Shown here one piece after another: positions 3,443 to 64,000 of a DNA stretch of 64,000 nt (its first letter is position 1; every line of letters starts with the position of its first letter). The stretch lies in the IMG/VR virus record IMGVR_UViG_3300029705_006930; one strand, written 5' to 3'. The stretch is from a virus. Taxonomy: Duplodnaviria > Heunggongvirae > Uroviricota > Caudoviricetes. The translations under genes were made by a program, and so were the position numbers. The notes under the pieces were generated by a model, which saw nothing but the letters and a program-made list of their open reading frames with translations, did no database searches and was not told the origin of the DNA.

Positions 3443-3589
3443 AGGTGCCTCCTTGTTTGGATTTTTGTTTCCTCTTTTATTGTCTATATTATACCATGAG
3501 AGGGGCTCTTTGATAACGGGGTTTTTGAAAAAACCAAAGAACTTTTTTAAATTTTTTGTGGCGCTTTATATATGTTAATGTATATAAGG

Positions 3590-4200
3590 AAAGGTTGATG
3601 CGGTTGTTGCGGGGCAGTGTGATTTGGCGCAAAATTAGGCGATTTTTAGGGTGTTTGCAATTGTGTAAGGTCTGGTGTTGGAAATTTGGAAAGGTGTCTT
3701 AATGCCTGAATTTGAGGCTCTGGTGGGGTTATTCTATCACAGTGCTGACGCACTGTGGCGTCGCTGTGCTCCTTTATCTTATCAACGATGAAATGTTTGT
3801 TATTATGTTGCGCGAGAGAGGGTGTGGGGCGCGAAATTTGGGGGCCGGAGAGGTGGGAGGCGCGGTTTTGGGGCGAAATTGGGGCCCGGGTGGCCGGGGC
3901 TAAAATGGGCGTTTCCGGGGGTGTTTTGAGGGGTGTTTGGATAAGTTGCACAAAAATAGAAAAGCCACAGCCGGCTCTGTATGGGGCTAGCTGTGGTTCT
4001 TGTTGTTTATGGGCGTGATTTTGTTGTTTTTATAGTGTTTTGTGGCAAAAATGGTGAAAAAATGTGTAAAAAGGCGCGAAAATGCGTCAAAATGTGTGAT
4101 TTTTGATGATTTTTGGGTGGATTTGGTGTGGAATCAGGGCGAAATGGTGTGGAATGTTGTGTTTGGAGGGTGTTGTGGGGGTGAAAAGTGGACAAATATT
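3590..4200 (+). repeat. GT-rich, C-poor non-coding tract with at least 10 degenerate GAAAWTGKG repeats and clustered G4-5 runs
   Basis: Repeat examples: gcgaaatttggggg (3832), gcgaaattgggg (3873), taaaatgggcg (3901), aaaaatggtg (4047), aaaaatgtg (4058), gaaaatgcg (4078), caaaatgtgtg (4088), gcgaaatggtgtgg (4139). Seven G runs of 4 or more fall between 3824 and 3935. Composition is unlike the flanks. Confidence 0.6.
3964..4010 (+). terminator. putative intrinsic terminator inside the GT-rich tract
   Basis: CCACAGC (3965-71) pairs with GCTGTGG (3990-96), followed by ttcttgttgttt. Confidence 0.45.
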
Positions 4201-4390
4201 GCTTTTTATGAGCCGAGAGTGAGATATAGCGACGCGTAGCTTATTATATACATTAAATCTGTCGCAAAGTCAAAATATCCCCCTACGGCAGTTTAAACCG
4301 CTTTATATCGGTAAATATCAACCTTTGTGAAAAGTTGATATTTTTTGTACAAAATTTTTCGATTTTTCAAAAATCGGACGCTTGTTGCTA

Positions 4391-4419
4391 TTGACAATCT
4401 GTCGCTCAGGATTTACAAT
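4391..4419 (+). promoter_or_regulatory. sigma-70-type promoter TTGACA-17 nt-TACAAT
   Basis: TTGACA at 4391-96, a 17-nt spacer, then TACAAT at 4414-19. Confidence 0.6.
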
Positions 4420-4424
4420 TTTAA

Positions 4425-4505
4425 GTGTAAACCGACAAGTTTACACCTACAATTCAATATATCTGTTGTGATTGTTCAAAGGGGGGTACAGATACACAAT
4501 CACAA
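4425..4505 (+). promoter_or_regulatory. two inverted repeats in the leader of the sigma-like gene (operator or 5'UTR hairpins)
   Basis: GTGTAAAC-N6-GTTTACAC (4425-46) sits at the predicted +1. TTGTGATTGT...ACAATCACAA follows at about 4464-4505. Confidence 0.5.
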
Positions 4506-4545
4506 AATCACACACTATTCAATATTTAAAGGAAGGTATTTATCT

Positions 4546-5241
4546 ATGAAAAAACTCACAAGAAAACAGCTTAAAGCAATAAAAAACACATCAAGCTACA
4601 AATATTTTGAACAATTGAAAACCCTTAAAGGCTCAATGCCGGCAGACAGCAAAAAAACCTATATAGAGCCAAATTCAGACCTTGAAAAATTCGCAAAATT
4701 GCAAGTTATGACCTTAAACAAATATATCCGCCAAGACGGCAAGGGACACAACTTGGCAGCACAAGTTTTGCAAGATTTACAACAGCAAGCTTGTTTGCTT
4801 ATTCTGGAAAACCCTTTAAGCCTTGACTGCTTTACAACAGAACAAGATAAACAGACAGAACAACAGCAACAAGCATTTAAGGCGGTTAAAAATGGTTTAT
4901 ATAGGTATTATTATCACAACTATACAAGCCGCAGCACATCTAAAATTCACAATAACCCGTCAAGTTACATTGCAACAGCTACATATCAAGCAACCGACGA
5001 TATCGGCAAAGATGCACGCGACAGCTATCAAATGGACCTTTACAAATTACATCTGGATGCAATTTTGACAATTTTAACAACGGATGAAAAATACATCTTT
5101 AATGGTTTATTTGTTGAAAACTTAACACAAAAACAACTTGCCGAAAAACTCAATAAATCACAAACTTATGTAGCAAAAACACTTGCAAATATCCGTAGCA
5201 AAATCAAAGCAAATGACCTTGATACACCGATAAACAATTAA
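4546..5241 (+). CDS. sigma-70 region-4-like HTH transcription factor (possible phage sigma factor)
   Basis: Start ATG 4546 after GGAAGG. The C-terminus LTQKQLAEKLNKSQTYVAKTLANIRSKIK resembles a region-4 HTH. Confidence 0.5.
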   Translation: MKKLTRKQLKAIKNTSSYKYFEQLKTLKGSMPADSKKTYIEPNSDLEKFAKLQVMTLNKYIRQDGKGHNLAAQVLQDLQQQACLLILENPLSLDCFTTEQDKQTEQQQQAFKAVKNGLYRYYYHNYTSRSTSKIHNNPSSYIATATYQATDDIGKDARDSYQMDLYKLHLDAILTILTTDEKYIFNGLFVENLTQKQLAEKLNKSQTYVAKTLANIRSKIKANDLDTPINN

Positions 5242-7846: not shown

Positions 7847-8071
7847 ATGGAATACGCAGATTTGATAAACAATTTAATTGCATATCGAAAAAGTCAGAAT
7901 ATTACAACTGTCGAACTTGCTCAAAAAATGAATGTAAGTCGACAATCAGTATATAATATTGAAACTTTGAAAAAAGCTGCACCAGATGAAACTTTGCAAA
8001 AAATGTGTCAAGCATTAAATTTGGAACTTGAAATTGTCCCAAAGCAATACAACATCAAATCCCAAAAATGA
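7847..8071 (+). CDS. XRE/Cro-type HTH transcriptional regulator
   Basis: ITTVELAQKMNVSRQSVYNIE is a typical HTH_3 motif. Confidence 0.7.
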   Translation: MEYADLINNLIAYRKSQNITTVELAQKMNVSRQSVYNIETLKKAAPDETLQKMCQALNLELEIVPKQYNIKSQK

Positions 8072-11450: not shown

Positions 11451-11500
11451 AGCGCAAGCTTAAAATAAAAAATTTTATTCACATGAAGGAGAACACAACA

Positions 11501-11866
11501 ATGAATGATTTTATTCAGATGGCAGAAAATCTTATGAGAGAAAATGCTGAACTCAGAGCAGAAAATGCGCGCTATAGAGAGCGCTTGAACGAGGCGCACG
11601 AAGTGACTGCGCCAATTGAACCGCAGAAATGTCTGCGTGATATCATCGCACCACTTGTGGAAAAATACGATGACAAAACAATTCACAATGTAAGCACATT
11701 CCGTCGTGTCTATGAAGAAATGGACATTGACTGGTCGGCTGAAGTTGTGAACTGTATTAAGGCACACAACCTGACACGTATTCCACATAAGGCATACATA
11801 GTAGAAGTTTCACCAGTTTTGACCGCCGAGTTTGAACGCGTGGTGCATTTGCTCTTGGCACAGTAA
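11501..11866 (+). CDS. hypothetical protein with N-terminal coiled-coil-like segment
   Basis: ATG 11501 after GAAGGAG. Confidence 0.6.
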   Translation: MNDFIQMAENLMRENAELRAENARYRERLNEAHEVTAPIEPQKCLRDIIAPLVEKYDDKTIHNVSTFRRVYEEMDIDWSAEVVNCIKAHNLTRIPHKAYIVEVSPVLTAEFERVVHLLLAQ

Positions 11867-11913
11867 AGGAGAATACATATGAAAAAGATTTTTTAATTTT
11901 TTAAAAAAAGCTA

Positions 11914-11942
11914 TTGACAAATTGATATGTAAAGTGTATTAT
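11914..11942 (+). promoter_or_regulatory. sigma-70-type promoter TTGACA-17 nt-TATTAT
   Basis: TTGACA at 11914-19 and TATTAT at 11937-42. Confidence 0.6.
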
Positions 11943-11948
11943 GTAGTT

Positions 11949-12080
11949 GAAATAACATACAGCTCATCTTTTTGAGACTGCTTTATTTTTTACAATAATA
12001 ACATACAAATCATCTTTTGTAGCTTTTAATCCTTGATTAAGGAAATATTTTTTTTAAGCAAATAACACACAAATCATCTG
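11949..12080 (+). promoter_or_regulatory. three direct copies of the 19-nt motif ATAACAYACARMTCATCT(T)
   Basis: Copies at 11952-11970, 11998-12016 and 12062-12079. Two further copies lie at 39956-39974 and 40011-40029. Confidence 0.7.
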
Positions 12081-12098
12081 TCAAAAGGAGAAATTGCA

Positions 12099-12224
12099 AT
12101 GTTACGTATTGTTAATGATAGGGGACACCTCCTCGCATATTGCGGAAACAAATTTCTTGTTTCGGCAGACAACGAGCGCGAAATGCAAAAAGAACTTGCA
12201 GAGCTCGGTTACACAATGACATAA
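12099..12224 (+). CDS. hypothetical 41-aa protein
   Basis: AAAGGAGAA SD. First gene after the motif array. Confidence 0.45.
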   Translation: MLRIVNDRGHLLAYCGNKFLVSADNEREMQKELAELGYTMT

Positions 12225-12280
12225 AGGCAAGCCGGCCTTTATATATACAAACACTATTTTTTATAAAAGGAGATTTTAAA

Positions 12281-12727
12281 ATGGCAAAACTTAATCTTAC
12301 AGCAAATGTGCTGTCCCTTGAATCCGCACTTAAACTCGAAGATATCAAAAACGCAATGCGTTGGTGTCCAGATGCTCTCACAGTTATGGACGAAAAAGGC
12401 GAAGAAGAACTCTTCTCTGTTGCTGCAGGTACTTCAAAAGGTTATATCTCACCATACGGCATCACATTTGCTGCTGCAACAGTTCGTGGTGGTAAAGCTT
12501 GCTACACACGCGAAGTTGCACCAGGCACAGAAATGAAAGATATTGCTGAAGTTGTGCTCGCTGAATATGACAAACCAAAAGCATATCTTGAAGTTGTTGA
12601 AGCTCAGGTTGCTGAAGCTCTCGCAAAAGTTGCTGAACGTAGAACAGCTATTATGGCTGAACTTGCTGGCGAATGCGAATGTCCAGACTGCACACCAGAC
12701 TGTCCAACAGCACAGGGCGAAGAATAA
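12281..12727 (+). CDS. hypothetical protein with C-terminal CxCxxCxxxC cluster (first gene of Ubl/JAB/E1 cassette)
   Basis: ATG 12281 after AAAGGAG. C-terminus GECECPDCTPDCP. Confidence 0.65.
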   Translation: MAKLNLTANVLSLESALKLEDIKNAMRWCPDALTVMDEKGEEELFSVAAGTSKGYISPYGITFAAATVRGGKACYTREVAPGTEMKDIAEVVLAEYDKPKAYLEVVEAQVAEALAKVAERRTAIMAELAGECECPDCTPDCPTAQGEE

Positions 12728-12850
12728 TCTTCGCCCAACCTAAACAAACTTATCCGCAATTTAACCCAATATTTTCCATTAACATTAACAAACTTTTAAA
12801 CCGAAATCGTTAACAAACAAACTTAAACACATAAAAGGAGATTAAATATT

Positions 12851-13078
12851 ATGCTTAGAATTTATGTTGGTACAAACACAAACCGTACAGCTTACACACT
12901 TTCCCCAGAAACAACCCTCAGAGCAGCTTTTGAAACTGCAGGCGTGAACTATGAAATGGGTACCGCAACTCTTGATGGTTCCACACTTCAGCCGGGCGAC
13001 CTTGACAAGTCTTTTGCAGACTTCGGCATCACAGGTACAGCTTACCTCCTGAGCATTGTTAAAGCAAACAACGCTTAA
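12851..13078 (+). CDS. ubiquitin-like / ThiS-MoaD-like beta-grasp protein (75 aa), C-terminus KANNA
   Basis: Its size, alternating pattern and the LDGSTLQPGDLD...YLLSIVK segment resemble ThiS/MoaD. It sits in an operon with JAB and E1. There is no terminal GG. Confidence 0.5.
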   Translation: MLRIYVGTNTNRTAYTLSPETTLRAAFETAGVNYEMGTATLDGSTLQPGDLDKSFADFGITGTAYLLSIVKANNA

Positions 13079-13093
13079 TTGATTTTACCTATA

Positions 13094-13115
13094 GGGGCGG
13101 GAGCAATCCTGCCCC
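13094..13115 (+). other. stable 9-bp hairpin with GCAA tetraloop between the Ubl gene and the next gene
   Basis: GGGGCGGGA-gcaa-TCCTGCCCC. Confidence 0.7.
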
Positions 13116-13139
13116 AATCTTTAAAGAGAGGAGCTCAGT

Positions 13140-14540
13140 ATGGCACACACATTTAAAAAATGGATGATAAAAGCCATTCCATATGACAACTTGTTTGACA
13201 TATCGGTGGACTTTGAGAATCCATTCCCGACCGATAATCGTCGCGATGCTACACTCGCGGCTGCATTTCACTGTTTGATTAAAGACAGAATTCCAGAGGG
13301 GGTTAATCGCATTGTAGTGCGTGATATCCACTCATATGACTGCAACGTGAGAGACATTTTTGACTATTATGAGGTTGAAAATGGTTTCAAAAGTTGTATT
13401 TTTTACTACGCAGATTGGGACAATGTGAATCTGCAGAGCAAAATTACATTGCCAAATGAATGGGAAGCTCAGGAAATTGCAAGCAAATTTACTGGATGTT
13501 ATGTTACAAATCACGTATCAAAACAATTGATGGTTATCTTTATTCCGAGCAACTATAACCTTGAAACTTGGCATAGACTTGGTGCATTGTTACCAAAATA
13601 TCCAGTGCTCGAGGATATGTGGGCAGCAAAACCACTTACCGAAGATGAACTCAAGATGTTGAAATCACTGTCAACAGACGGTGTAGATTTTGACACATAT
13701 ATAAAAGCGTGGATTGCGACACTCGACCTGCGCACATCCGCAATCAAAAAAATGTTCAACAAATTCATTATTGATAACATCGAGGAACAGATACGCAATG
13801 CCGAAGATAGACGTAGAAGCCTTGAAAACAATATCACAGACTATGCTGCGAGACTGGCAAGGCTGTATAGCGACCTTGACGGTGTTATTGAAATGATAAA
13901 CCGTCTTATGATAGGTGATGACACTGTTGAAGAAAAAGAAAAGAGACTTATCGAATTCTTGTTAACAAACAAAAATGTTGAGCCAATCAGACGTCGCAAT
14001 GACCGCGTTGAATTCAATGTTCACGCAGCAATTGACTGTTGGGATAACGATATGTTCTCATCTTATATCAATAATCACAACAGTTTATTGTATCGCCATA
14101 CAAGCAGATATTCATATGACCAGTTGAAACGTTTTTATGAGCAGGCATTGTTTGCCGGTCGCTTTAAAATTCAGGGCATTGCTAAATTTGAAATTGCAGC
14201 AACAGGTAATGTGAGACCAATTTCAAAAAATGGGCATTGGCCATCAGCTGAAATCGAAAACTGTATTCCAAATACACATGTGGATAAATTCACTTGTATT
14301 GGTAATCACAGACGTATGCTGGATGATGCTGCAAAAATTCGTGACTATGAACAGGCAATTTTGATTGCTATTCAGATTACACAGTCAGTTAACTGGTCGG
14401 ATGGTGCAGTTATGAATCACTTTATTCCTGAAGTGTTGCACTGTGAACGTCCAATTCTTACAGACAGAACAGGCAATACATACACTGTTGCACAGGTAAT
14501 AAGCATACTTGATGCCGAAATAAAGGAGGTTGAAAAATAA
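13140..14540 (+). CDS. hypothetical 466-aa protein of the Ubl cassette (central coiled coil, function unknown)
   Basis: GAGAGGAG SD. Overlaps the JAB gene as ATAATG. Confidence 0.7.
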   Translation: MAHTFKKWMIKAIPYDNLFDISVDFENPFPTDNRRDATLAAAFHCLIKDRIPEGVNRIVVRDIHSYDCNVRDIFDYYEVENGFKSCIFYYADWDNVNLQSKITLPNEWEAQEIASKFTGCYVTNHVSKQLMVIFIPSNYNLETWHRLGALLPKYPVLEDMWAAKPLTEDELKMLKSLSTDGVDFDTYIKAWIATLDLRTSAIKKMFNKFIIDNIEEQIRNAEDRRRSLENNITDYAARLARLYSDLDGVIEMINRLMIGDDTVEEKEKRLIEFLLTNKNVEPIRRRNDRVEFNVHAAIDCWDNDMFSSYINNHNSLLYRHTSRYSYDQLKRFYEQALFAGRFKIQGIAKFEIAATGNVRPISKNGHWPSAEIENCIPNTHVDKFTCIGNHRRMLDDAAKIRDYEQAILIAIQITQSVNWSDGAVMNHFIPEVLHCERPILTDRTGNTYTVAQVISILDAEIKEVEK

Positions 14541-15475
14541 TGAAACCAATAAGATTGACCGATGATGTAAAAGCGGCTATTCTTGATAAATTTGCAAAAC
14601 AGCTGAGCACGGTTGTACGTGCTTCAACTATTACATTCACACATACGCCAACAGTGGTAAGCACACCGTTAGGCAAAGATGAAAAAGTGCTGATTACTTA
14701 TACAGCAGAAGCATTCCGCAAGCAGCAGATGCTTATTCAGAGTTTTGACAGTGAAGTGGCTTGGCACGGTGTTGTTGAACGTGAAGATGCAAAGCATTTT
14801 ATTATTACAGATATCGTAGTATATCCCCAGACTGTTACCGGCTCAACTGTTGAGATGGACGAAGACAAATATGCTCTTTGGACAATTCAGTTCGGTCGTG
14901 AACACGGCGAAGAAACATTCCAGAAACTGCGTATGCAGGGACATAGCCACGTGAATATGGAATGTTTTGCAAGTGGTACAGACTCTAAACACCAGGATGA
15001 CATCTTGGCAACAACTGACCCAAATGGGTTCTATATTTTCATTATTGCCAATAAAAAAGGCAAATTCTGGAGCACTATTTTCGACCTCGAAGCAAATGTT
15101 CAGTATGAAAATGCTGACATCGAAATCGAGTATGAGGAAGATGAGTACGATGAATTTGTAAGTGCAGCAGAAAGTGTGGTTGTAAAAAAGACTTATACAC
15201 CACCTTACAACTATGGCAATGGCTATCACAACAACGGAGCAGGGTATTCATACGGGGCAAGCGCTTATTCTCAGAAGCCACCTCAGACTCCGCCTATGCC
15301 AGTGCTTCCGACAAATACACAGCCAAAAACAAGCACAAACGAAACAAACACAAAGGCAAACACAAACACAAAAAAGGACGATAAATCCATTGAAGAAGAT
15401 ATCACCAATCTTATTCAGATGTCATTGAACGATATGGAATGGGATGAAGTTGGTGGATGGACAAGCAAAATGTAA
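14540..15475 (+). CDS. JAB/MPN+ (JAMM) metallopeptidase with Pro/Thr/Asn-rich C-terminal region
   Basis: DSEVAWHG (Glu) followed by HSHVNMECFASGTD, which fits H-x-H-x7-S-x2-D. Confidence 0.8.
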   Translation: MKPIRLTDDVKAAILDKFAKQLSTVVRASTITFTHTPTVVSTPLGKDEKVLITYTAEAFRKQQMLIQSFDSEVAWHGVVEREDAKHFIITDIVVYPQTVTGSTVEMDEDKYALWTIQFGREHGEETFQKLRMQGHSHVNMECFASGTDSKHQDDILATTDPNGFYIFIIANKKGKFWSTIFDLEANVQYENADIEIEYEEDEYDEFVSAAESVVVKKTYTPPYNYGNGYHNNGAGYSYGASAYSQKPPQTPPMPVLPTNTQPKTSTNETNTKANTNTKKDDKSIEEDITNLIQMSLNDMEWDEVGGWTSKM

Positions 15476-15484
15476 GGAGAAATT

Positions 15485-16174
15485 ATGGACTTAAGTAAAT
15501 CACTTGACTGGTTTAATCCAGACAGCGTTTCGGAACGCATACATATTATCGGATGCGGTAGTGTAGGTAGTACAGTTGTGGAACTGTTGGCAAGATTCGG
15601 TCTTACAAAGTTCACTCTGTATGATTTTGACCTTGTTGAACCTCACAATATCGCAAACCAGATGTTCAGAAAAACGGACATTGGTAAAACAAAAGTTGAA
15701 GCATTGCAGCAGATTGTATGTGAAATCAATCCAGAGGCGGGCAAAGATATTAAACTTGAACCAGAAGGTTGGCACGGACAGCAGTTGTCTGGCTATGTAG
15801 TTCTTGCTGTTGATAGCATTGAATTGCGTAAAAAGATTTGTGAAGGTTTGCAGATGAATATCTTTGTTAAAGCTGTGTTTGATTTCCGTACAAGTTTGCT
15901 CAACGCACAGCATTATGCAGCCAATTGGCAGGACAAAAAACATCGTGATGACCTCATTGCAACAATGCAGTTCACCGATGAAGAAGCTGCGGCTGAAAAC
16001 CCAGTATCAGCGTGTGGTGTAACACTTGGTGTCGCACCAACAGTAAGACTGATATGCACACTAGGCGTAAGCAATATGATGAACTTTTTCAGAGAAAAGA
16101 AATTGAAAAAAGTTGTATTGGCAGACGCATTTAATTTTGATGCTGACCCTATGGTATTACCTATGGGTCAATAA
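15485..16174 (+). CDS. ThiF/MoeB/E1-like adenylyltransferase
   Basis: IIGCGSVGSTVVELLARFGL...LYDFDLVEPHNIANQ is a Rossmann GxGxxG and adenylation motif. Confidence 0.8.
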   Translation: MDLSKSLDWFNPDSVSERIHIIGCGSVGSTVVELLARFGLTKFTLYDFDLVEPHNIANQMFRKTDIGKTKVEALQQIVCEINPEAGKDIKLEPEGWHGQQLSGYVVLAVDSIELRKKICEGLQMNIFVKAVFDFRTSLLNAQHYAANWQDKKHRDDLIATMQFTDEEAAAENPVSACGVTLGVAPTVRLICTLGVSNMMNFFREKKLKKVVLADAFNFDADPMVLPMGQ

Positions 16175-16216
16175 TACACAATAAGAGAAATGTTTATGGT
16201 GAATATTGCACATTGT

Positions 16217-16500
16217 ATGGCAAGCTTTTGCTGTTAGCAGAAGTAAAGAAATGGTAGAGAACATAGAGGCAGGCGCTTAAGGAGCACGCTGAGGTGATTC
16301 CTAAGTACTGCAGCTTCTTGCATCCGACGAGCTCTGAAAAGGTAGGTTTAACAGGAGGATTGGATTACTTACAAGTGAAATTAACCAGTTCAAACCGTAA
16401 AGCTCATCTGAAATTAACGATAAATCCCAGATTTGCATCTCTTTTATCCGGGAATGAAGGGCTTAAAACTATAGCTAGACCATAAACAAGATAGGGAGGA
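16217..16500 (+). ncRNA. structured non-coding leader upstream of the RT (module A)
   Basis: Hairpin at 16225-43, GAAATGGTAG at 16248, enclosing stem 16217-24/16317-23. No SD-led ORF. Confidence 0.5.
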
Positions 16501-16504
16501 CATT

Positions 16505-17860
16505 ATGGTTTATATCACATATCCAGCACCTAACAAATTTCATCAGATTACATTTGAAGAAATGATGTCGGGCAATGTTAATACAGATAAATTAAGAATT
16601 TTAGGCGGACATAATACGCTTACTTTGCATCTTAACGATGTACCTGCAAACTTAAAAGGTCAGACTTCTGTACGCAAAATGATTGCAGATTTGCAGTATT
16701 TTGTAGGTGTATATTATGACACACTGATGCCACAGATAAAAGAATTTGAGAAGCTTTCAGATGCTCAGCGTCGCAGCGTCAAACAGCGTGACAAGATTGA
16801 AAATTATTTTGAACAGATGGGCGCAACTGCAAATGATGAAGACTTGCAGAAAATCACTGAACAGGTAGATGCGCTGCAGTGTGAAGTTGCAGAACAGCAG
16901 TATAAATATGCTTACTATACATTCGATTTGCGCAAAAGTTCAGCGCCGGAACACATTCCATTGTGGCGACTGCCAAAAGAATACAGACGTACAATCAATG
17001 CTCCGAACATACATCTTAAAAATGCGCTATATGAACTTAAAGAACTGTTTGAAAATATGATGATACGTACATATCATACTGCATCATTTGCGTATGTTAA
17101 ACATCGTGGAACTTTGGATGCTGTAAAACGTCATCAGAGCTGGGAAAGCAAATGGTTTGCAAAGTTTGACTTTTCAGATTTCTTTGGTAGCACAACAATT
17201 GACTTTGTTATGCAACAGTTCTCTCAAATATATCCGTTTAATATGATTTGTGCATATAAAGATGGTAAAGAAGCTCTTTATAAAGCATTGCAGTTGTGTT
17301 TTTTGGACGGTGGACTTCCACAGGGCACACCTATTAGTCCTCTCATCACAAACATAATGATGATACCATTTGACCACGCAATGTCAAAAGCTCTTAAAGA
17401 ATTTAAATATCCAAACAAACACGGTAGTGAACGTTTTGTGTATACAAGATATGCTGATGACCTGCTTATCAGTTGCCGTGTGGATTTTAAAGTGGAAATT
17501 ATTCAGGCATTTATTCTGGAAACTTTAAAATCAATGAATGCGCCTTTTAGCCTTAACGTTAAGAAAACTCGTTACGGTTCTAGTGCAGGTAGCAACTGGA
17601 ATCTTGGGGTGATGCTTAACAAAGACAATAAAATTACAATCGGTGCAGAAAACAAGCGCAGACTTAAAGCTTCTTTGAATTCATTTATCCTTGATATGAA
17701 GAATGAAAAACCTTGGGATATTTCTATGGTGTATAGACTCAGAGGTCAGATTTCTTATTATCGTAATGTGGAAAGGGAAGCAACAAATAACATCATTGCA
17801 GCGATGAACACAAAATATGGTGTTGATGCAGAAGCAATGATGAAATCTATTATAAGTTAA
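16505..17860 (+). CDS. reverse transcriptase, retron/UG(DRT)/Abi-like, with about 190-aa N-terminal extension
   Basis: KFDFSDFF, LPQGTPISPLITN, YTRYADDLLIS, KKTRYG, LGVML and a thumb-like RLRGQISYYRNV occur in order. GGGAGGA SD. Confidence 0.85.
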   Translation: MVYITYPAPNKFHQITFEEMMSGNVNTDKLRILGGHNTLTLHLNDVPANLKGQTSVRKMIADLQYFVGVYYDTLMPQIKEFEKLSDAQRRSVKQRDKIENYFEQMGATANDEDLQKITEQVDALQCEVAEQQYKYAYYTFDLRKSSAPEHIPLWRLPKEYRRTINAPNIHLKNALYELKELFENMMIRTYHTASFAYVKHRGTLDAVKRHQSWESKWFAKFDFSDFFGSTTIDFVMQQFSQIYPFNMICAYKDGKEALYKALQLCFLDGGLPQGTPISPLITNIMMIPFDHAMSKALKEFKYPNKHGSERFVYTRYADDLLISCRVDFKVEIIQAFILETLKSMNAPFSLNVKKTRYGSSAGSNWNLGVMLNKDNKITIGAENKRRLKASLNSFILDMKNEKPWDISMVYRLRGQISYYRNVEREATNNIIAAMNTKYGVDAEAMMKSIIS

Positions 17861-38353: not shown

Positions 38354-38420
38354 AAAACCTATTATCAAAAGATGGTTTGTGTGTTATTATTATAGTAGAA
38401 AACAGGAAAGGAGAAAGTGT

Positions 38421-38861
38421 ATGGGATTTAAGTTTATACCTACAACAACAATTCCAAAGTCGGGCGAAATTCGGCTTGGATATGTAAATGCAGATAATGG
38501 CAACCATAAATATACTGGTATCAGACCATATTTGATTGTATCAAACAATGTGTACAATAACACATCAAACCACGCGGAAGTAATTCCTTTTACAACACGT
38601 AGATTTGACAGTAAAAATCCTGTACACATTCAGTTTCCAAAGGGTGAAGTTAAAGGCTTAAATGAAAATTCAACATTAGTAATTGAAGGCCGCACAACTC
38701 TGCCACATAACCAATTAACCGAACCAATTGGTTATTTCAATAGTGATAATTGGAAGAAGGCTGCGACTGGTCTTCTGTATCAGAATCCTCATATTAAATA
38801 TGCCTTTGATGAAGGAGTGCACAATACATTATTTTTTAATCATTTATTGACTGCTAAATAA
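38421..38861 (+). CDS. MazF/PemK-like endoribonuclease toxin fold
   Basis: GIRPYLIVSNNVYN...VIPFTT...PVHI...GLNENSTLVIEG matches the PemK pattern. Confidence 0.7.
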   Translation: MGFKFIPTTTIPKSGEIRLGYVNADNGNHKYTGIRPYLIVSNNVYNNTSNHAEVIPFTTRRFDSKNPVHIQFPKGEVKGLNENSTLVIEGRTTLPHNQLTEPIGYFNSDNWKKAATGLLYQNPHIKYAFDEGVHNTLFFNHLLTAK

Positions 38862-38883: not shown

Positions 38884-38919
38884 TTGAAAAATTTACATAT
38901 TATTGTTATTATGTAAATT
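38884..38919 (+). promoter_or_regulatory. promoter TTGAAA-17 nt-TATTAT overlapped by a 10-bp inverted repeat
   Basis: TTGAAA at 38884-89 and TATTAT at 38907-12. AATTTACATA (38890-99) pairs with TATGTAAATT (38910-19). Confidence 0.55.
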
Positions 38920-38938
38920 ATAAGATGAGGTGAAATAC

Positions 38939-39931
38939 ATGGATTATACTCGATTAATTGATGAATTTTTAGATGCAGTTGCAAGAAATGAAAATCCAAA
39001 ACAGCATTATAATTATATAAAAGTATTTTCTATCATTAAGAACTATGTTATTGAGAAAAATAAAAGCCTGGAAGAAATGAACCTAAAAGAGCTGGATGAA
39101 TTATTTTTCACTCGCTTCACAGGCAGAGCAGATAGTATCAAGCGCATAGTCACTTATTGTCGTCGATATATAAGATGGCTGCAAACAACGGGCCATTTAT
39201 CTTTTAGGGACGCTGAAAGTCATATTTTATTTGACTTAAGATATTATAATACAAGTTATATTACATCACATAAATTGTATCGTGCAGCTAAATTAAGCAG
39301 TGTGTTTTTTAGTACCGAAGAATATGTTGATTATATGTCTACTGTTTTCGATGAAAAATTAACACAAGGCGACAACACTCGTTATTATACCGATATCGCA
39401 GTTTTTTATTTAAGCTGGTTGGGATTTACAATTGATGAAATGCTGAAATTGAAGAAAAATGATTTTGATTTTTCATCGCGAACTATTGCCGGCAAATATA
39501 TCTCTGATGAGCGAATGCTTACCTTTTTAAACAAGTATAACCAATCTGATACTTATGAAAAATTACGCAAAGGCCATAATTTCACAACAGAAGAATATGT
39601 TTATAATGAATATGAGTTTTTAAAAGGGAAAACGACAGCTTTAAATGAGATGGCCATTTATAACATATTCCGAACAACACGACAACGTATCAATGAATTT
39701 AACAGGGATAATATAGATAATCAAATTGAAAATAAAGTTGATTTCAACAATATTAAAAAATCTGCACTGTTTGAATATATTTATACAGTCCAGAAGATTT
39801 CATATTTTGAAACAACAACTTCTGGTGTTGCTCTTTTCGCTTCGTTTATTAAAGATGAAATACCGACAAGTGCAATTATGCCGTTAATTGAAGATTATAA
39901 TCTATGGGTAGAAATTAGAGGCTCGCTGTAA
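38939..39931 (+). CDS. integrase-like protein lacking catalytic residues (SAM-like N-domain; likely DNA-binding or regulatory)
   Basis: The N-terminus resembles a tyrosine-recombinase core-binding domain. LSWLGFTIDEMLKLKKNDFD aligns to the box I region but with Thr in place of Arg. No HxxR or Tyr motif follows. Confidence 0.5.
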   Translation: MDYTRLIDEFLDAVARNENPKQHYNYIKVFSIIKNYVIEKNKSLEEMNLKELDELFFTRFTGRADSIKRIVTYCRRYIRWLQTTGHLSFRDAESHILFDLRYYNTSYITSHKLYRAAKLSSVFFSTEEYVDYMSTVFDEKLTQGDNTRYYTDIAVFYLSWLGFTIDEMLKLKKNDFDFSSRTIAGKYISDERMLTFLNKYNQSDTYEKLRKGHNFTTEEYVYNEYEFLKGKTTALNEMAIYNIFRTTRQRINEFNRDNIDNQIENKVDFNNIKKSALFEYIYTVQKISYFETTTSGVALFASFIKDEIPTSAIMPLIEDYNLWVEIRGSL

Positions 39932-39955
39932 AGGCGAGCTTCTAAATCACTCAAA

Positions 39956-40029
39956 TAACATACAAACCATCTTTTAATATAGGTTATGTATGTTCTTTTT
40001 TAAAACTTGTATAACATACAAATCATCTT
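39956..40029 (+). promoter_or_regulatory. two more copies of the 19-nt ATAACATACAAAYCATCTT motif
   Basis: Copies at 39956-39974 and 40011-40029. GTATGTT (39988-94) can pair with the first copy. Confidence 0.7.
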
Positions 40030-40060
40030 GGGAAAAGGGGCTGACAATATGAAATGAACC

Positions 40061-40738
40061 ATAAGAAGAGGAAGACGATTTTCCTCATGTATTTTATGTA
40101 CGTTTTTAATTTTAATATTTTCAATTTGTCCCACAGTTAATGCTTACGCATACAATGAGGGCACAAATTCAGATGTATATTCATTATATGGCAATTTTGA
40201 TATCAAGTTGAAGAAATATGCTTATTTGCAATGTCGACAAAATAATTTGTCATACTCCATGTTTTTAGCAGTCGTATACAACGAAAGCAGATTTCAGACA
40301 GATGCCGTGCACATAAATCAAAATGGTTCGATAGATAGAGGATTGTGTCAGATTAATGATGCTTGTTTTGACTTTTTATATAACAAGGGTGTTTTGAATT
40401 CAAAAGAAGAATTATTTAATCCTTATATAAATATCGACTGTTATATAGCACTGATGAAGTATCACAAAACGTATACAAGAGACGATAGCAAGGCATTACT
40501 TAGATATCAGGTAGGCGAAGGTAAATATCGCCGTAAATATAATGAAGGCACACTGACTAACCCAACACATCAAAGGGTTTTAGATTTGGAATTAAAATAT
40601 CGTACATATTTAAATTCTCTTTCAGCACAGTTAGAACTTCAGAATGTTATTACAACACCTTATTTGTTGAATGATTATCCGGAGTTAAATCGATTGTTGC
40701 TTTTTAAAATATATGACACACATAACATACTAATTTGA
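40061..40738 (+). CDS. secreted lytic transglycosylase (SLT domain); start unresolved
   Basis: SLT motifs VVYNESRF and GSIDRGLCQIN. The frame is open from 40058 and encodes the signal peptide RRGRRFSSCILCTFLILIFSICPTVNAYA. See the finding at 40034-40738. Confidence 0.7.
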   Translation: MRRGRRFSSCILCTFLILIFSICPTVNAYAYNEGTNSDVYSLYGNFDIKLKKYAYLQCRQNNLSYSMFLAVVYNESRFQTDAVHINQNGSIDRGLCQINDACFDFLYNKGVLNSKEELFNPYINIDCYIALMKYHKTYTRDDSKALLRYQVGEGKYRRKYNEGTLTNPTHQRVLDLELKYRTYLNSLSAQLELQNVITTPYLLNDYPELNRLLLFKIYDTHNILI

Positions 40739-62419: not shown

Positions 62420-64000
62420 ATGAAAAGAGTTGCATGTTTATATCGTGTTTCAACAAAAGGACAAGTTGATAAAGATGACATTCCTATGCAGCGTAAAGAA
62501 TGCAGTGAATTTATTAAAAAACAGGGATGGCAATTAGTCAATGAATATTATGAAAAAGGTGTCAGTGGCTATAAAAAATCAGCAGACCAACGTGATGTAT
62601 TGCAAACAATCAAGAATGATGCTTTAAATAATCAGTTTGACATTCTGCTTGTCTATATGTTTGACAGATTAGGACGACGCGAAGATGAAACTCCATTTAT
62701 TCTTGAATGGTTTACAAAACAAGGTATAGAAATGTGGAGTGTTAAAGAAGGCCAACAGTCCTTTTCACAACATATTGATAAATTACTTAACTACATACGT
62801 TTCTGGCAAGCCAGCGGTGAAAGTCATAAGACTTCTATGCGTGTTGATAGTAGCCATAGGCAAATGGCTGAAGAAGGCAAATTTAGAGGCGGCGATGCAC
62901 CATATGGATATATGCTTGTAAAAACAGGTGTATTCAATAAAAAGAAAAAAGAATTATTAAAATTAGTCATCAATACCATTGAGGCCCCTATTGTGCAGCT
63001 TATATATAAGTTAGCTTTGGAGGGATATGGTCAAACAAAAATAGCCAAATATTTAAATGAGCACGGCATAAAAACTCGAAACAATAAAATGTGGAATAGT
63101 GGTACAATTGGTTATATCCTAAAAAATCCAATTTATAAAGGTTATCCTGCATATAGAAAGAAAACAGGACAAGGAGAGGGAGTTCATAATTTGCCAAGTT
63201 CAGAATGGATATTATCTTCGGCACAGCAAATTGAGCTTGTTATAATTTCAGAGAATGATTGGGATAGAGTGCAGGAATTACGTACACAACATCATAATTC
63301 TCCTAATCATAACACAATCACAAATTCACCATTATTATTAGTTGGGTTGACTTACTGTGGATGCTGTAAAAGTCCATTGACTACCACTTATTCATATAAG
63401 TACAATAAAGATAAAACAAAGGTATATCAGCGACCAAAATATCGTTGCTCTGGTAAGGCAAATGCAAAAGCACTCTGTGATGGACAAACCGTTTATAGCG
63501 CAGAGAAATATGAAAAAGCTGTTTTAAATCAGATTGATATTTATTTAAATAAAATCAAAAATACACCACAATCTCAACAAGATACAACAGCTAATGATTT
63601 TCAAAAAAATATTAAATCTCTCGAGCATAAATTAGCAAAAATCAATAATATGATAGAAATATTATCTGATGAAGTTGGTAATGCCTTGATAGGAGAAAGT
63701 CGATTTACACCAGAAGTTTTGGCAGAACAAATTAACAAAAAACAACAAGATAAAATTTTAATACAAAATGAACTTGACAAAATAAAACAAGAGGCAGATA
63801 ATTATAACCATGAACAAATCAATACACAGCAATTAAACCAAGTTATTCCAATCTGGAAAGAAAGGTTTGACGGATTTTCAACTGAAAAGAAAAAACGTTT
63901 ATTGCGTATCTTGATTTCACGCATTGAATTTAATAGAGATACAATTATTATAGATTTTAATACAACTATTCAATGCTTTTTAGATGCTATCACTGCATAA
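62420..64000 (+). CDS. large serine recombinase (integrase type)
   Basis: N-terminal resolvase domain CLYRVSTKGQ...DILLVYMFDRLGRR, a recombinase domain, the zinc-ribbon Cys pairs GLTYCGCCKS and YRCSGK...CDG, and a C-terminal coiled coil. The stop falls at 63998-64000. Confidence 0.9.
   Translation: MKRVACLYRVSTKGQVDKDDIPMQRKECSEFIKKQGWQLVNEYYEKGVSGYKKSADQRDVLQTIKNDALNNQFDILLVYMFDRLGRREDETPFILEWFTKQGIEMWSVKEGQQSFSQHIDKLLNYIRFWQASGESHKTSMRVDSSHRQMAEEGKFRGGDAPYGYMLVKTGVFNKKKKELLKLVINTIEAPIVQLIYKLALEGYGQTKIAKYLNEHGIKTRNNKMWNSGTIGYILKNPIYKGYPAYRKKTGQGEGVHNLPSSEWILSSAQQIELVIISENDWDRVQELRTQHHNSPNHNTITNSPLLLVGLTYCGCCKSPLTTTYSYKYNKDKTKVYQRPKYRCSGKANAKALCDGQTVYSAEKYEKAVLNQIDIYLNKIKNTPQSQQDTTANDFQKNIKSLEHKLAKINNMIEILSDEVGNALIGESRFTPEVLAEQINKKQQDKILIQNELDKIKQEADNYNHEQINTQQLNQVIPIWKERFDGFSTEKKKRLLRILISRIEFNRDTIIIDFNTTIQCFLDAITA

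Follow-up and report, generated by a model that had tools for sequence, protein, structure and literature searches.

The stretch of DNA analysed here, called the window throughout, comprises 64,000 nt of the virus record IMGVR_UViG_3300029705_006930 (Caudoviricetes) and lies in a 208-kb metagenomic contig. It contains a repeated box with six strong copies, located in three regulatory regions up to 28 kb apart. The first region is the leader of an operon (12099-17860) that includes genes for an E1-like protein and a retron-type reverse transcriptase, the second separates a gene for an integrase-like protein (38939-39931) from an SLT/replication module, and the third is found ahead of the PemK/MazF-like gene, the upstream neighbour of the integrase-like gene. 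The box and the integrase-like protein, whose gene lies between inverted box 6 and boxes 4-5, are the subject of this report. The features at these loci are the following.

3782..3806, minus strand: degenerate seventh candidate box, ATAATAACAAACATTTCATCGTTGA, 16 bits, status uncertain
11914..11942, plus strand: sigma-70-type promoter-like site, TTGACA-17-TATTAT, which would drive operon 12099-17860
11952..11969, plus strand: candidate operator box 1, ATAACATACAGCTCATCT
11998..12015, plus strand: candidate operator box 2, ATAACATACAAATCATCT, in the 5' leader, 46 bp after box 1
12062..12079, plus strand: candidate operator box 3, ATAACACACAAATCATCT, 64 bp after box 2
38370..38387, minus strand: candidate operator box 6, inverted, upstream of the PemK/MazF-like gene
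38421..38861, plus strand: PemK/MazF-like toxin gene, directly followed by the repressor gene both in the window and in five of five syntenic relatives
38939..39931, plus strand: predicted MrpR/YopR/SroF-like integrase-fold repressor, 330 aa, proposed binder of the boxes
39955..39972, plus strand: candidate operator box 4, ATAACATACAAACCATCT, 23 nt past the repressor stop codon
40011..40028, plus strand: candidate operator box 5, ATAACATACAAATCATCT, 56 bp after box 4

A search of the window allowing up to three mismatches returned six matches against 0.77 expected, and none of 100 shuffles got to six. With a position weight matrix (PWM) built from the sites the six copies scored 29-35 bits and the runner-up position in the 64 kb only 16 bits. 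A preliminary description of this DNA had reported a 19-nt motif present five times and nowhere else, always in the same orientation and only in the leaders of two distant operons. Those five copies were recovered within 1 nt of the positions given, all on the plus strand, and both sets were confirmed; the sixth copy (one mismatch, 34 bits), however, is a strong one, is found on the minus strand and adds the region upstream of the PemK/MazF-like gene as a third location. The motif itself is real and far above chance, but 19 nt is too short for it. Boxes 6 and 4 form a 26-nt inverted repeat in which 24 of 26 positions are complementary (box 6 with its flanks occupies 38363-38388), therefore the conserved box measures about 24-26 bp and not 18-19. 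This longer box, AATAACAYACAAAYCATCTTTTNATA, is non-palindromic and without internal dyad symmetry.

The PWM scan that had been proposed earlier was applied to the window and to the corresponding loci of five relatives, with six strong sites in the former and the motif absent from the latter. Scatter over the genome, coding DNA included, had been named as the outcome that would speak against a regulatory site, and it was not seen: the six strong copies are all non-coding in a region that is about 93% coding (about 7% non-coding), and the next site falls to 16 bits. The flanks of the window, 10 kb on each side, contained no further strong copy. In IMG/VR an exact-motif scan returned 29 scattered single matches only, in line with chance, and a DNA search of both loci against 50,697 GenBank phages gave no match.

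The boxes occupy well-defined positions relative to promoters and ribosome-binding sites. The promoter proposed earlier at 11914 is borne out by a match to the consensus at 11 of 12 positions; box 1 begins 9 nt past its -10 hexamer and so covers about +2 to +19 of the inferred transcript. Box 2 overlaps the -10 element of a weaker promoter-like site (TTGAGA-16-AATAAT) and box 3 ends about 5 nt ahead of the Shine-Dalgarno (SD) sequence and 19 nt ahead of the ATG at 12099. At the second region, box 4 directly follows a hairpin (39921-39939) and box 5 ends about 5 nt ahead of GGGAAAAGGGG, a purine-rich, SD-like stretch with which the SLT/replication module begins. As had been noticed, the final copy of each set stands close to the start codon, ending 19-20 nt ahead of the ATG. 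Box 6 covers the spacer and the start of the -10 element of a promoter-like site, TTATCA-17-TGtTATTAT (38362-38390). The start-to-start spacings (46 bp for boxes 1-2, 64 bp for boxes 2-3 and 56 bp for boxes 4-5) have no common helical phase, a pattern that fits independent binding of monomers.

These positions bear on the idea, raised in the preliminary description together with a sigma-like factor, that the motif is a phage-specific promoter element. It would be read either by a YonO-like single-chain RNA polymerase or by the sigma-like factor with the host polymerase. Five copies are co-oriented with the downstream genes and near their start codons, no sigma-70 promoter was seen upstream of the SLT/replication module, and a YonO-type gene (Pfam RdRP) adjoins the window, about 200 nt past its left end (L048 10206-12077). 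The copies, however, are arranged in tandem pairs and in a triplet within 130 bp, copy 1 is placed directly downstream of a near-consensus sigma-70 promoter, and copy 6 is inverted inside a sigma-70-like promoter, from where it would fire into a terminator and antisense DNA. Promoter scans and inspection of the sequence found no consistent sigma-70 geometry built from or around the motif, and there is no conserved -35/-10 arrangement. Moreover, close relatives with replication genes 64-85% identical have other sequence in place of the motif, and YonO of SPbeta starts transcription at a single site, upstream of yonK, from which it serves the late genes and neither the early nor the replication operons (PMC5467207). 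A promoter function is thus very unlikely.

The second idea of the earlier account, an antiterminator, belongs to the readings in which the motif acts at the RNA level, as an antitermination element or as the site of an RNA-binding protein that controls hairpin and T-run elements between the copies in the leaders. Such elements come after boxes 1, 2 and 4, and five of the copies would be transcribed in sense. The 5' half of box 4 (AACATACAAACC) pairs with 39983-39995 (GGTTATGTATGTT) and is followed by CTTTTTT (window 39955-40002), so box 4 is the 5' arm of a terminator-like hairpin with a T6 run that incorporates the predicted operator; this leader folds better than its shuffles (z = -2.3). 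The first leader, on the other hand, is no more stably folded than its shuffled versions (z = -0.7), copy 6 reads antisense and coincides with part of a promoter, and no Rfam family reached its gathering score anywhere in the window. No structure is common to the copies and the relatives show wholesale replacement of the motif, not compensatory changes. An RNA-level role is consequently disfavoured and highly improbable.

The protein encoded at 38939-39931 is difficult to place by single-sequence comparison. A GTG at 38930 was considered as its start and set aside, and the public gene calls agree with the ATG at 38939. A word-indexed homology search matched the protein only to itself, phmmer with the single sequence was negative against the Protein Data Bank (PDB), and PHROGs gave no match. 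An exhaustive HMMER search identified 15 relatives of similar length at about 25% identity. The profile of the resulting 16-member family matched the YopR/MrpR entries 8bj6, 8a0a and 8bjv of the PDB over the full length (E = 8e-9 to 1e-8), and also 9rd5, which by its Foldseek label is phi3T SroF bound to DNA. An hhalign comparison with SPbeta YopR gave a probability of 93.9% (E = 1.5e-7). The Pfam domain MrpR_N_CB was matched by 12 of the 16 members and Phage_integrase by none. No HTH (helix-turn-helix) Pfam domain was identified in the window protein.

The predicted structure agrees with the profiles. The AlphaFold2 model (mean pLDDT 88.4, pTM 0.81) has the two domains, CB plus CAT, of a tyrosine-recombinase-like fold, and the top seven PDB matches returned by Foldseek were all YopR, MrpR or SroF, with Tn1549 Int, lambda Int and Cre ranking below. 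In the family alignment, where the catalytic positions were assigned from motifs as read by eye, the box-I Arg position (LGF-T/S/E) is occupied by Thr, Ser or Glu and the box-II HxxR position reads K-K-S-A, with no Arg or His. The sole invariant residue is the C-terminal Tyr (Tyr320). An hhalign comparison with the window's own integrase was uninformative. As judged from this alignment, the protein has lost the recombinase catalytic residues, and the label of a "catalytically dead", integrase-like protein given in the preliminary description holds. It can be named more exactly: by profile and model comparison it is a remote homologue of MrpR/YopR/SroF, the family of integrase-fold master repressors of SPbeta and phi3T. 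A reading of the Pfam name as the Streptomyces "MrpR" resolvase was considered and dropped; the PDB entries matched by the profile are named SPbeta MrpR/YopR, the master repressor described in PMC10516654.

A further reading is that of DNA transactions, with the boxes as recombination or inversion sites around the PemK-repressor cassette, or else as iterons of a replication origin. The 24/26 inverted repeat does flank a gene of recombinase fold, direct repeats stand directly upstream of the replication module, and the prophage has, in addition, genes for a real tyrosine integrase and for a serine recombinase. Nevertheless, the flanked protein is without catalytic Arg/His and fits the non-catalytic MrpR family, a 6-8 bp crossover spacer bounded by core-type half-sites was not identified, and the orientation is the same in all 10 of the independent contigs listed. 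The three-copy set is 28 kb off, before an unrelated operon, and the motif differs in the relative L043 though its replication proteins stay 50-85% identical. The arm and core sites of lambda Int provide the closest known parallel, with the same protein fold and with a specific sequence repeated around the gene in direct and inverted orientation; they differ from the present case, which has no catalytic Arg/His, no Phage_integrase match, no core half-sites around a crossover spacer and no sign of rearrangement among independent assemblies. An active tyrosine recombinase with att or arm sites was rejected on the loss of the catalytic residues, a box without dyad or core architecture and the constant orientation. 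Any DNA-transaction role is hardly credible.

Five syntenic family members were compared with the window: L043, L046, L047, L053 and L054. Their gene order is a FolD-like gene (where the contig extends to it), PemK, repressor, SLT and replication genes. In L043 the neighbours of the repressor are 61-85% identical to those of the window (PemK 73%, SLT 61%, DnaB 85%) and the replication proteins 50-85%, whereas the repressor aligns at about 32% and over part of its length only. Over the whole alignment the five repressors are 22-24% identical to the window protein and 20-34% to each other. The window motif is absent from all five relatives; the single match above 12 bits is a 13-bit site in coding sequence.

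Three of the relatives present repeated boxes of their own at the same places. L043 has, between its repressor and SLT genes, a 25-nt tandem pair, CTTATGAWATRCGCTAAATAGAAAC, with a spacing of 65 bp (0 expected), and L047 a tandem pair around ACGGCTAACC, 64 bp apart (p = 0.03). In L053 a forward box just ahead of the SLT SD is accompanied by an inverted copy in the PemK promoter spacer (16/18 matches, p < 0.005; about 21/26 over a longer stretch, counted by hand), an arrangement equal to that of window boxes 4-5 and 6. The inverted-copy pattern was no better than shuffles in L043, L046 and L047. The closest pair of repressors, P0003 and P0004 (34%), has the most similar putative boxes. Such a joint change of a repressor and a nearby repeated box in an otherwise conserved neighbourhood is the classical signature of an immunity module.

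The same comparison weakens the case for another regulator of the phage as binder, in which the proximity of the integrase-like gene would be incidental. The candidates are the protein with sigma-region-4/HTH character at 4546-5241, which is the sigma-like factor of the preliminary description, and the XRE-type HTH protein at 7847-8071. The window does encode several HTH proteins, one of them with a weak Sigma70_r4/HTH_3 match, and the relatives carry an HTH_3 gene. HTH dimers, however, typically bind short palindromes, and the box is long (about 26 nt), asymmetric and unlike the sites of such dimers. The boxes also flank the MrpR-like gene and change with it while the adjacent genes keep 61-85% identity, and their layout mirrors the MrpR/SPBRE system described below. 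Binding by another regulator is therefore unlikely, and the integrase-like protein, which the preliminary description had listed among the candidate binders, gains from both its family membership and the change of the motif together with the protein in syntenic relatives.

The window is, by its gene content, part of an SPbeta-like prophage. At its right end (62420-64000) a large serine recombinase is followed by host genes, which marks the prophage boundary and therefore indicates an integrated prophage. The YonO-type gene and the serine recombinase boundary together support an SPbeta-like lifestyle. The replication module after boxes 4-5 is of SPbeta type and comprises SLT, AAA_24, Phage_SPbeta_YorH (Pfam), a DnaB-like helicase, PD-(D/E)XK, PHP and PolIII-alpha.

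MrpR, which is the same protein as YopR and SroF, serves SPbeta as its master repressor, and reporters of PaimR and PyosX are repressed by it (PMC10516654). Its ChAP-seq peaks lie on the SPBRE box in ten promoter regions, among them those of yorE, with which the replication operon begins, and of yopM, which opens the operon of MrpR itself (PMC10516654). The SPBRE was extracted from the SPBc2 record as the consensus tAGACAAATACAAAWAATATGTATATAAT, with 11 copies, all co-oriented with the downstream gene; the copies of yopM and yopV and the second copy of yonX abut the SD, and the yonX pair is 64 bp apart.

The window resembles this system in several respects. Both repressors have a non-catalytic tyrosine-recombinase fold and similar length (330 aa in the window, 325 aa in SPbeta), and in both the box is long, asymmetric, present in multiple copies in distant intergenic regions and mostly co-oriented with the downstream gene. 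Boxes are found in both at the repressor operon (the promoter-like site of box 6, yopM in SPbeta) and at the head of the replication operon (boxes 4-5, yorE in SPbeta). Some boxes abut the SD and tandem pairs about 64 bp apart occur in each. Start-to-start distances of 64-65 bp recur in the window (11998/12062), L043 (11016/11081), L047 (6169/6233) and the yonX pair of SPBc2 (68717/68781). An 8-mer, ATACAAAT, is common to the window motif and the SPBRE in the same orientation.

There are also differences. Most SPBREs are located in the spacer between a TAGACA -35 and a TATAAT -10 element, whereas in the window only box 6 lies in a promoter spacer, inverted, and the other boxes are found in leaders, downstream of a promoter. 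The SPbeta repressor ends a six-gene operon (sro/yopM-R), while the window repressor follows a PemK/MazF-like gene and is directly upstream of the replication module. The proteins are far apart in sequence (about 16% identity, a blank BLAST and a Pfam score of the window protein below cut-off) and no DNA similarity of SPbeta level was found; the window sequence is known from metagenome assemblies only. Neither arbitrium genes nor a Sar-like antirepressor were identified in the window, which takes in part of the prophage only and was not searched systematically for AimR or Sar. A single match to the Bacillus-type LexA-box consensus is present in the window, with one mismatch, inside a gene and at chance level.

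SroF of phi3T binds as a monomer to a 26-bp non-palindromic box, nearly encircling the DNA and contacting 24 bp, and the SroF proteins of the SPbeta family are distinct variants, each co-evolving with its own Sar antirepressor (bioRxiv 10.1101/2025.11.27.690993). Its structure (PDB 9rd5) gave the best superposition with the window model, at a TM of 0.56-0.58. Its 26-bp non-palindromic box is comparable to the 24-26 nt found here, without dyad symmetry or fixed helical phasing, and the co-evolution of SroF and Sar variants to the divergence of repressor and box. The box sequences, in contrast, are unrelated (CAGTAATTTTATTTTTATTCTTAATG in phi3T, AATAACAYACAAAYCATCTTTTNATA in the window).

The lambda CI/Cro module is a more general parallel, as an immunity module in which the repressor gene is flanked by operators (predicted ones in the window), with autoregulation and with the joint divergence of repressor and operator known as heteroimmunity. 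CI-type repressors, however, are HTH dimers acting on short palindromic operators at two divergent promoters, while an integrase fold and long asymmetric boxes 28 kb apart are found here. Operators of the CI/Cro HTH type were considered for the window and set aside; the box is asymmetric over 18-26 nt and the adjacent candidate binder has no HTH Pfam domain.

The reading that we favour, with a probability of roughly 0.78, is that the motif is the operator of the neighbouring inactive, MrpR-like integrase-fold repressor. It draws on the box statistics and coordinates, on the protein's homology and fold, on the similarity to SPBRE placement and on the joint change of box and repressor; from these we infer physical binding, repression and, at individual boxes, either roadblock or promoter occlusion. 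A very distant relative of the SPbeta master repressor is encoded next to the motif, therefore the system most likely belongs, as a very divergent case, to the MrpR/SroF-SPBRE class of prophage switch, which was described recently, and is no new kind of element or mechanism. The general idea of the preliminary description, a site for a phage regulator that co-regulates distant blocks, is in this way supported by the motif statistics, the MrpR/YopR/SroF-family protein and the joint change of motif and repressor.

By analogy with SroF, one repressor monomer would wrap each asymmetric box of about 24-26 bp. Box 6, in the spacer and -10 element of the promoter of the PemK-repressor pair, would confer negative autoregulation, and box 1, which covers the start site of the strong 11914 promoter, would block that promoter. 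Boxes 2-3 and 4-5, just upstream of ribosome-binding sites, may block initiation or serve as roadblocks; boxes 4-5 in particular could act as a roadblock to read-through past a weak hairpin, or overlap with an unrecognised promoter. Under such control the E1/retron reverse transcriptase operon and the SLT/replication operon would be silent in the lysogen and turned on jointly upon inactivation of the repressor.

Several observations weigh against the assignment of the motif to this repressor. BLASTP against SPbeta YopR gave no match, just about 16% of the residues are identical to those of YopR, and the Pfam match of the window protein itself (23.8 bits) is under the curated cut-off of 27. Among the relatives, L054 has the same arrangement of boxes as L053 but weakly (14/18, p = 0.07), the repeated-box pattern of L046 is not significant (p = 0.2) and L043 is without a significant copy in the PemK promoter. 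The short contigs of the relatives omit other regulators, and formally the change could lie in some other factor. The ATACAAAT core in common with the SPBRE could be due to chance (rough estimate p ~0.03). In the interval from the repressor gene to the SLT gene, which holds boxes 4-5, no sigma-70-type promoter could be discerned. Finally, the genes of defence islands are often expressed, not repressed, in lysogens, and the operon behind boxes 1-3 resembles such an island.

A variant with a more particular mechanism is fairly unlikely. According to it, the repressor would act at most boxes as a DNA-encircling roadblock in 5' leaders, in tandem and directly ahead of ribosome-binding sites, gating the transcription that runs on from its own, constitutively transcribed gene to the replication operon, and might also, given its recombinase ancestry, synapse the sets of boxes that are 28 kb apart into a single repressive complex. 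If this roadblock variant were true, the lineage-specific pairs of repressor and box, with repressors 20-34% identical in phages that are otherwise conserved, would be a natural panel for the recognition code of the fold.

To our knowledge, monomeric repressors of integrase fold (MrpR/SroF) have been characterised only in 2023-2025 and only in Bacillus arbitrium phages of the SPbeta family. The operator reading would indicate the same repressor-operator logic in a very divergent, uncultured lineage of SPbeta-like prophages and thus extend the class past those phages. The repressor there lies beyond plain sequence similarity, and annotation pipelines give a weak integrase-like match at best. 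Hypervariable repressors with replaced boxes would form testable pairs for the study of DNA recognition over 24-26 bp by a recombinase fold and of the diversification of immunity specificities. The reading also predicts that the E1/retron reverse transcriptase island, the replication module and the MazF-like toxin gene are kept silent in the lysogen.

The operon behind boxes 1-3 comprises three small open reading frames (ORFs), two proteins of 466 aa and 311 aa without family match, and two proteins recognised by PADLOC models, one ThiF/E1-like (E1-E2 models, 3e-17) and the other a retron-type reverse transcriptase (RT_II-A, 2e-41). From this content it looks like a defence or counter-defence island placed under predicted operators of the master repressor. 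Three contigs from other metagenomes (L059, L060 and L061) carry the gene 11483-11866, within the equivalent of window 11483-12150, and all stop soon after it: L059 inside the first ORF past the three-box leader, L060 and L061 before the leader. These ends suggest assembly breaks at a variable cargo island downstream.

The PemK/MazF-like gene is kept at 63-75% identity across L043, L046, L047, L053 and L054, and no accompanying antitoxin gene could be recognised. The circuitry of arbitrium and repressor in SPbeta and phi3T works via the host MazEF system (PMC10516654, PMC10769878). The phage of the window has a MazF-like gene of its own, with a predicted repressor box in its promoter. The repressor gene also has its own promoter-like site (38884-38912, TTGAAA-17-TATTAT with an upstream TG), which is overlapped by a palindrome, AATTTACATATTA / TATTATGTAAATT (window 38884-38919). 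A similar sequence is found in L053 and L054 despite their differing repressors and boxes, and the conservation of the palindrome suggests a second, conserved regulator.

Further relatives of these genes were scarce. Protein-seeded scans of IMG/VR with the repressor, a 411-aa protein and the PemK alignment identified no relatives, and GTDB genomes and JGI metagenome contigs contained just weak PemK-like matches at 41-51% identity; the aligned repressors diverge too much to serve as a seed for scanning genomes.

The degenerate seventh candidate box (3782-3806) faces the minus-strand integrase/ligase/YonO-like operon. It lies in a divergent, G-rich, gene-free region of 1.1 kb (window 3443-4545), between that operon and the sigma-like gene, which also contains repeats of the GGSGCRAAATTDGGG type and several inverted repeats, with no Rfam match in the region. 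The region may serve as an origin, in packaging or in regulation.

The start of the SLT gene (window 40049-40260) is anomalous. Upstream, its frame stays open as far as 40058 and codes for an N-terminus that resembles a signal peptide, and the sole ATG in frame, at 40049, meets an in-frame TGA at codon 3 (ATG AAA TGA). A second ATG at 40054, in another frame, opens a 28-aa hydrophobic peptide that starts like the SLT N-terminus of L043. SLT is called from a later ATG (159 aa) in all independent assemblies, so an assembly error is not the cause. Ahead of SLT, the window and L043 (ATGAAATGA) as well as L046 (ATGTTTTGA) have a mini-ORF of two codons with an SD of its own. The anomaly could reflect a frameshift, a recoding event or a regulatory mini-ORF.

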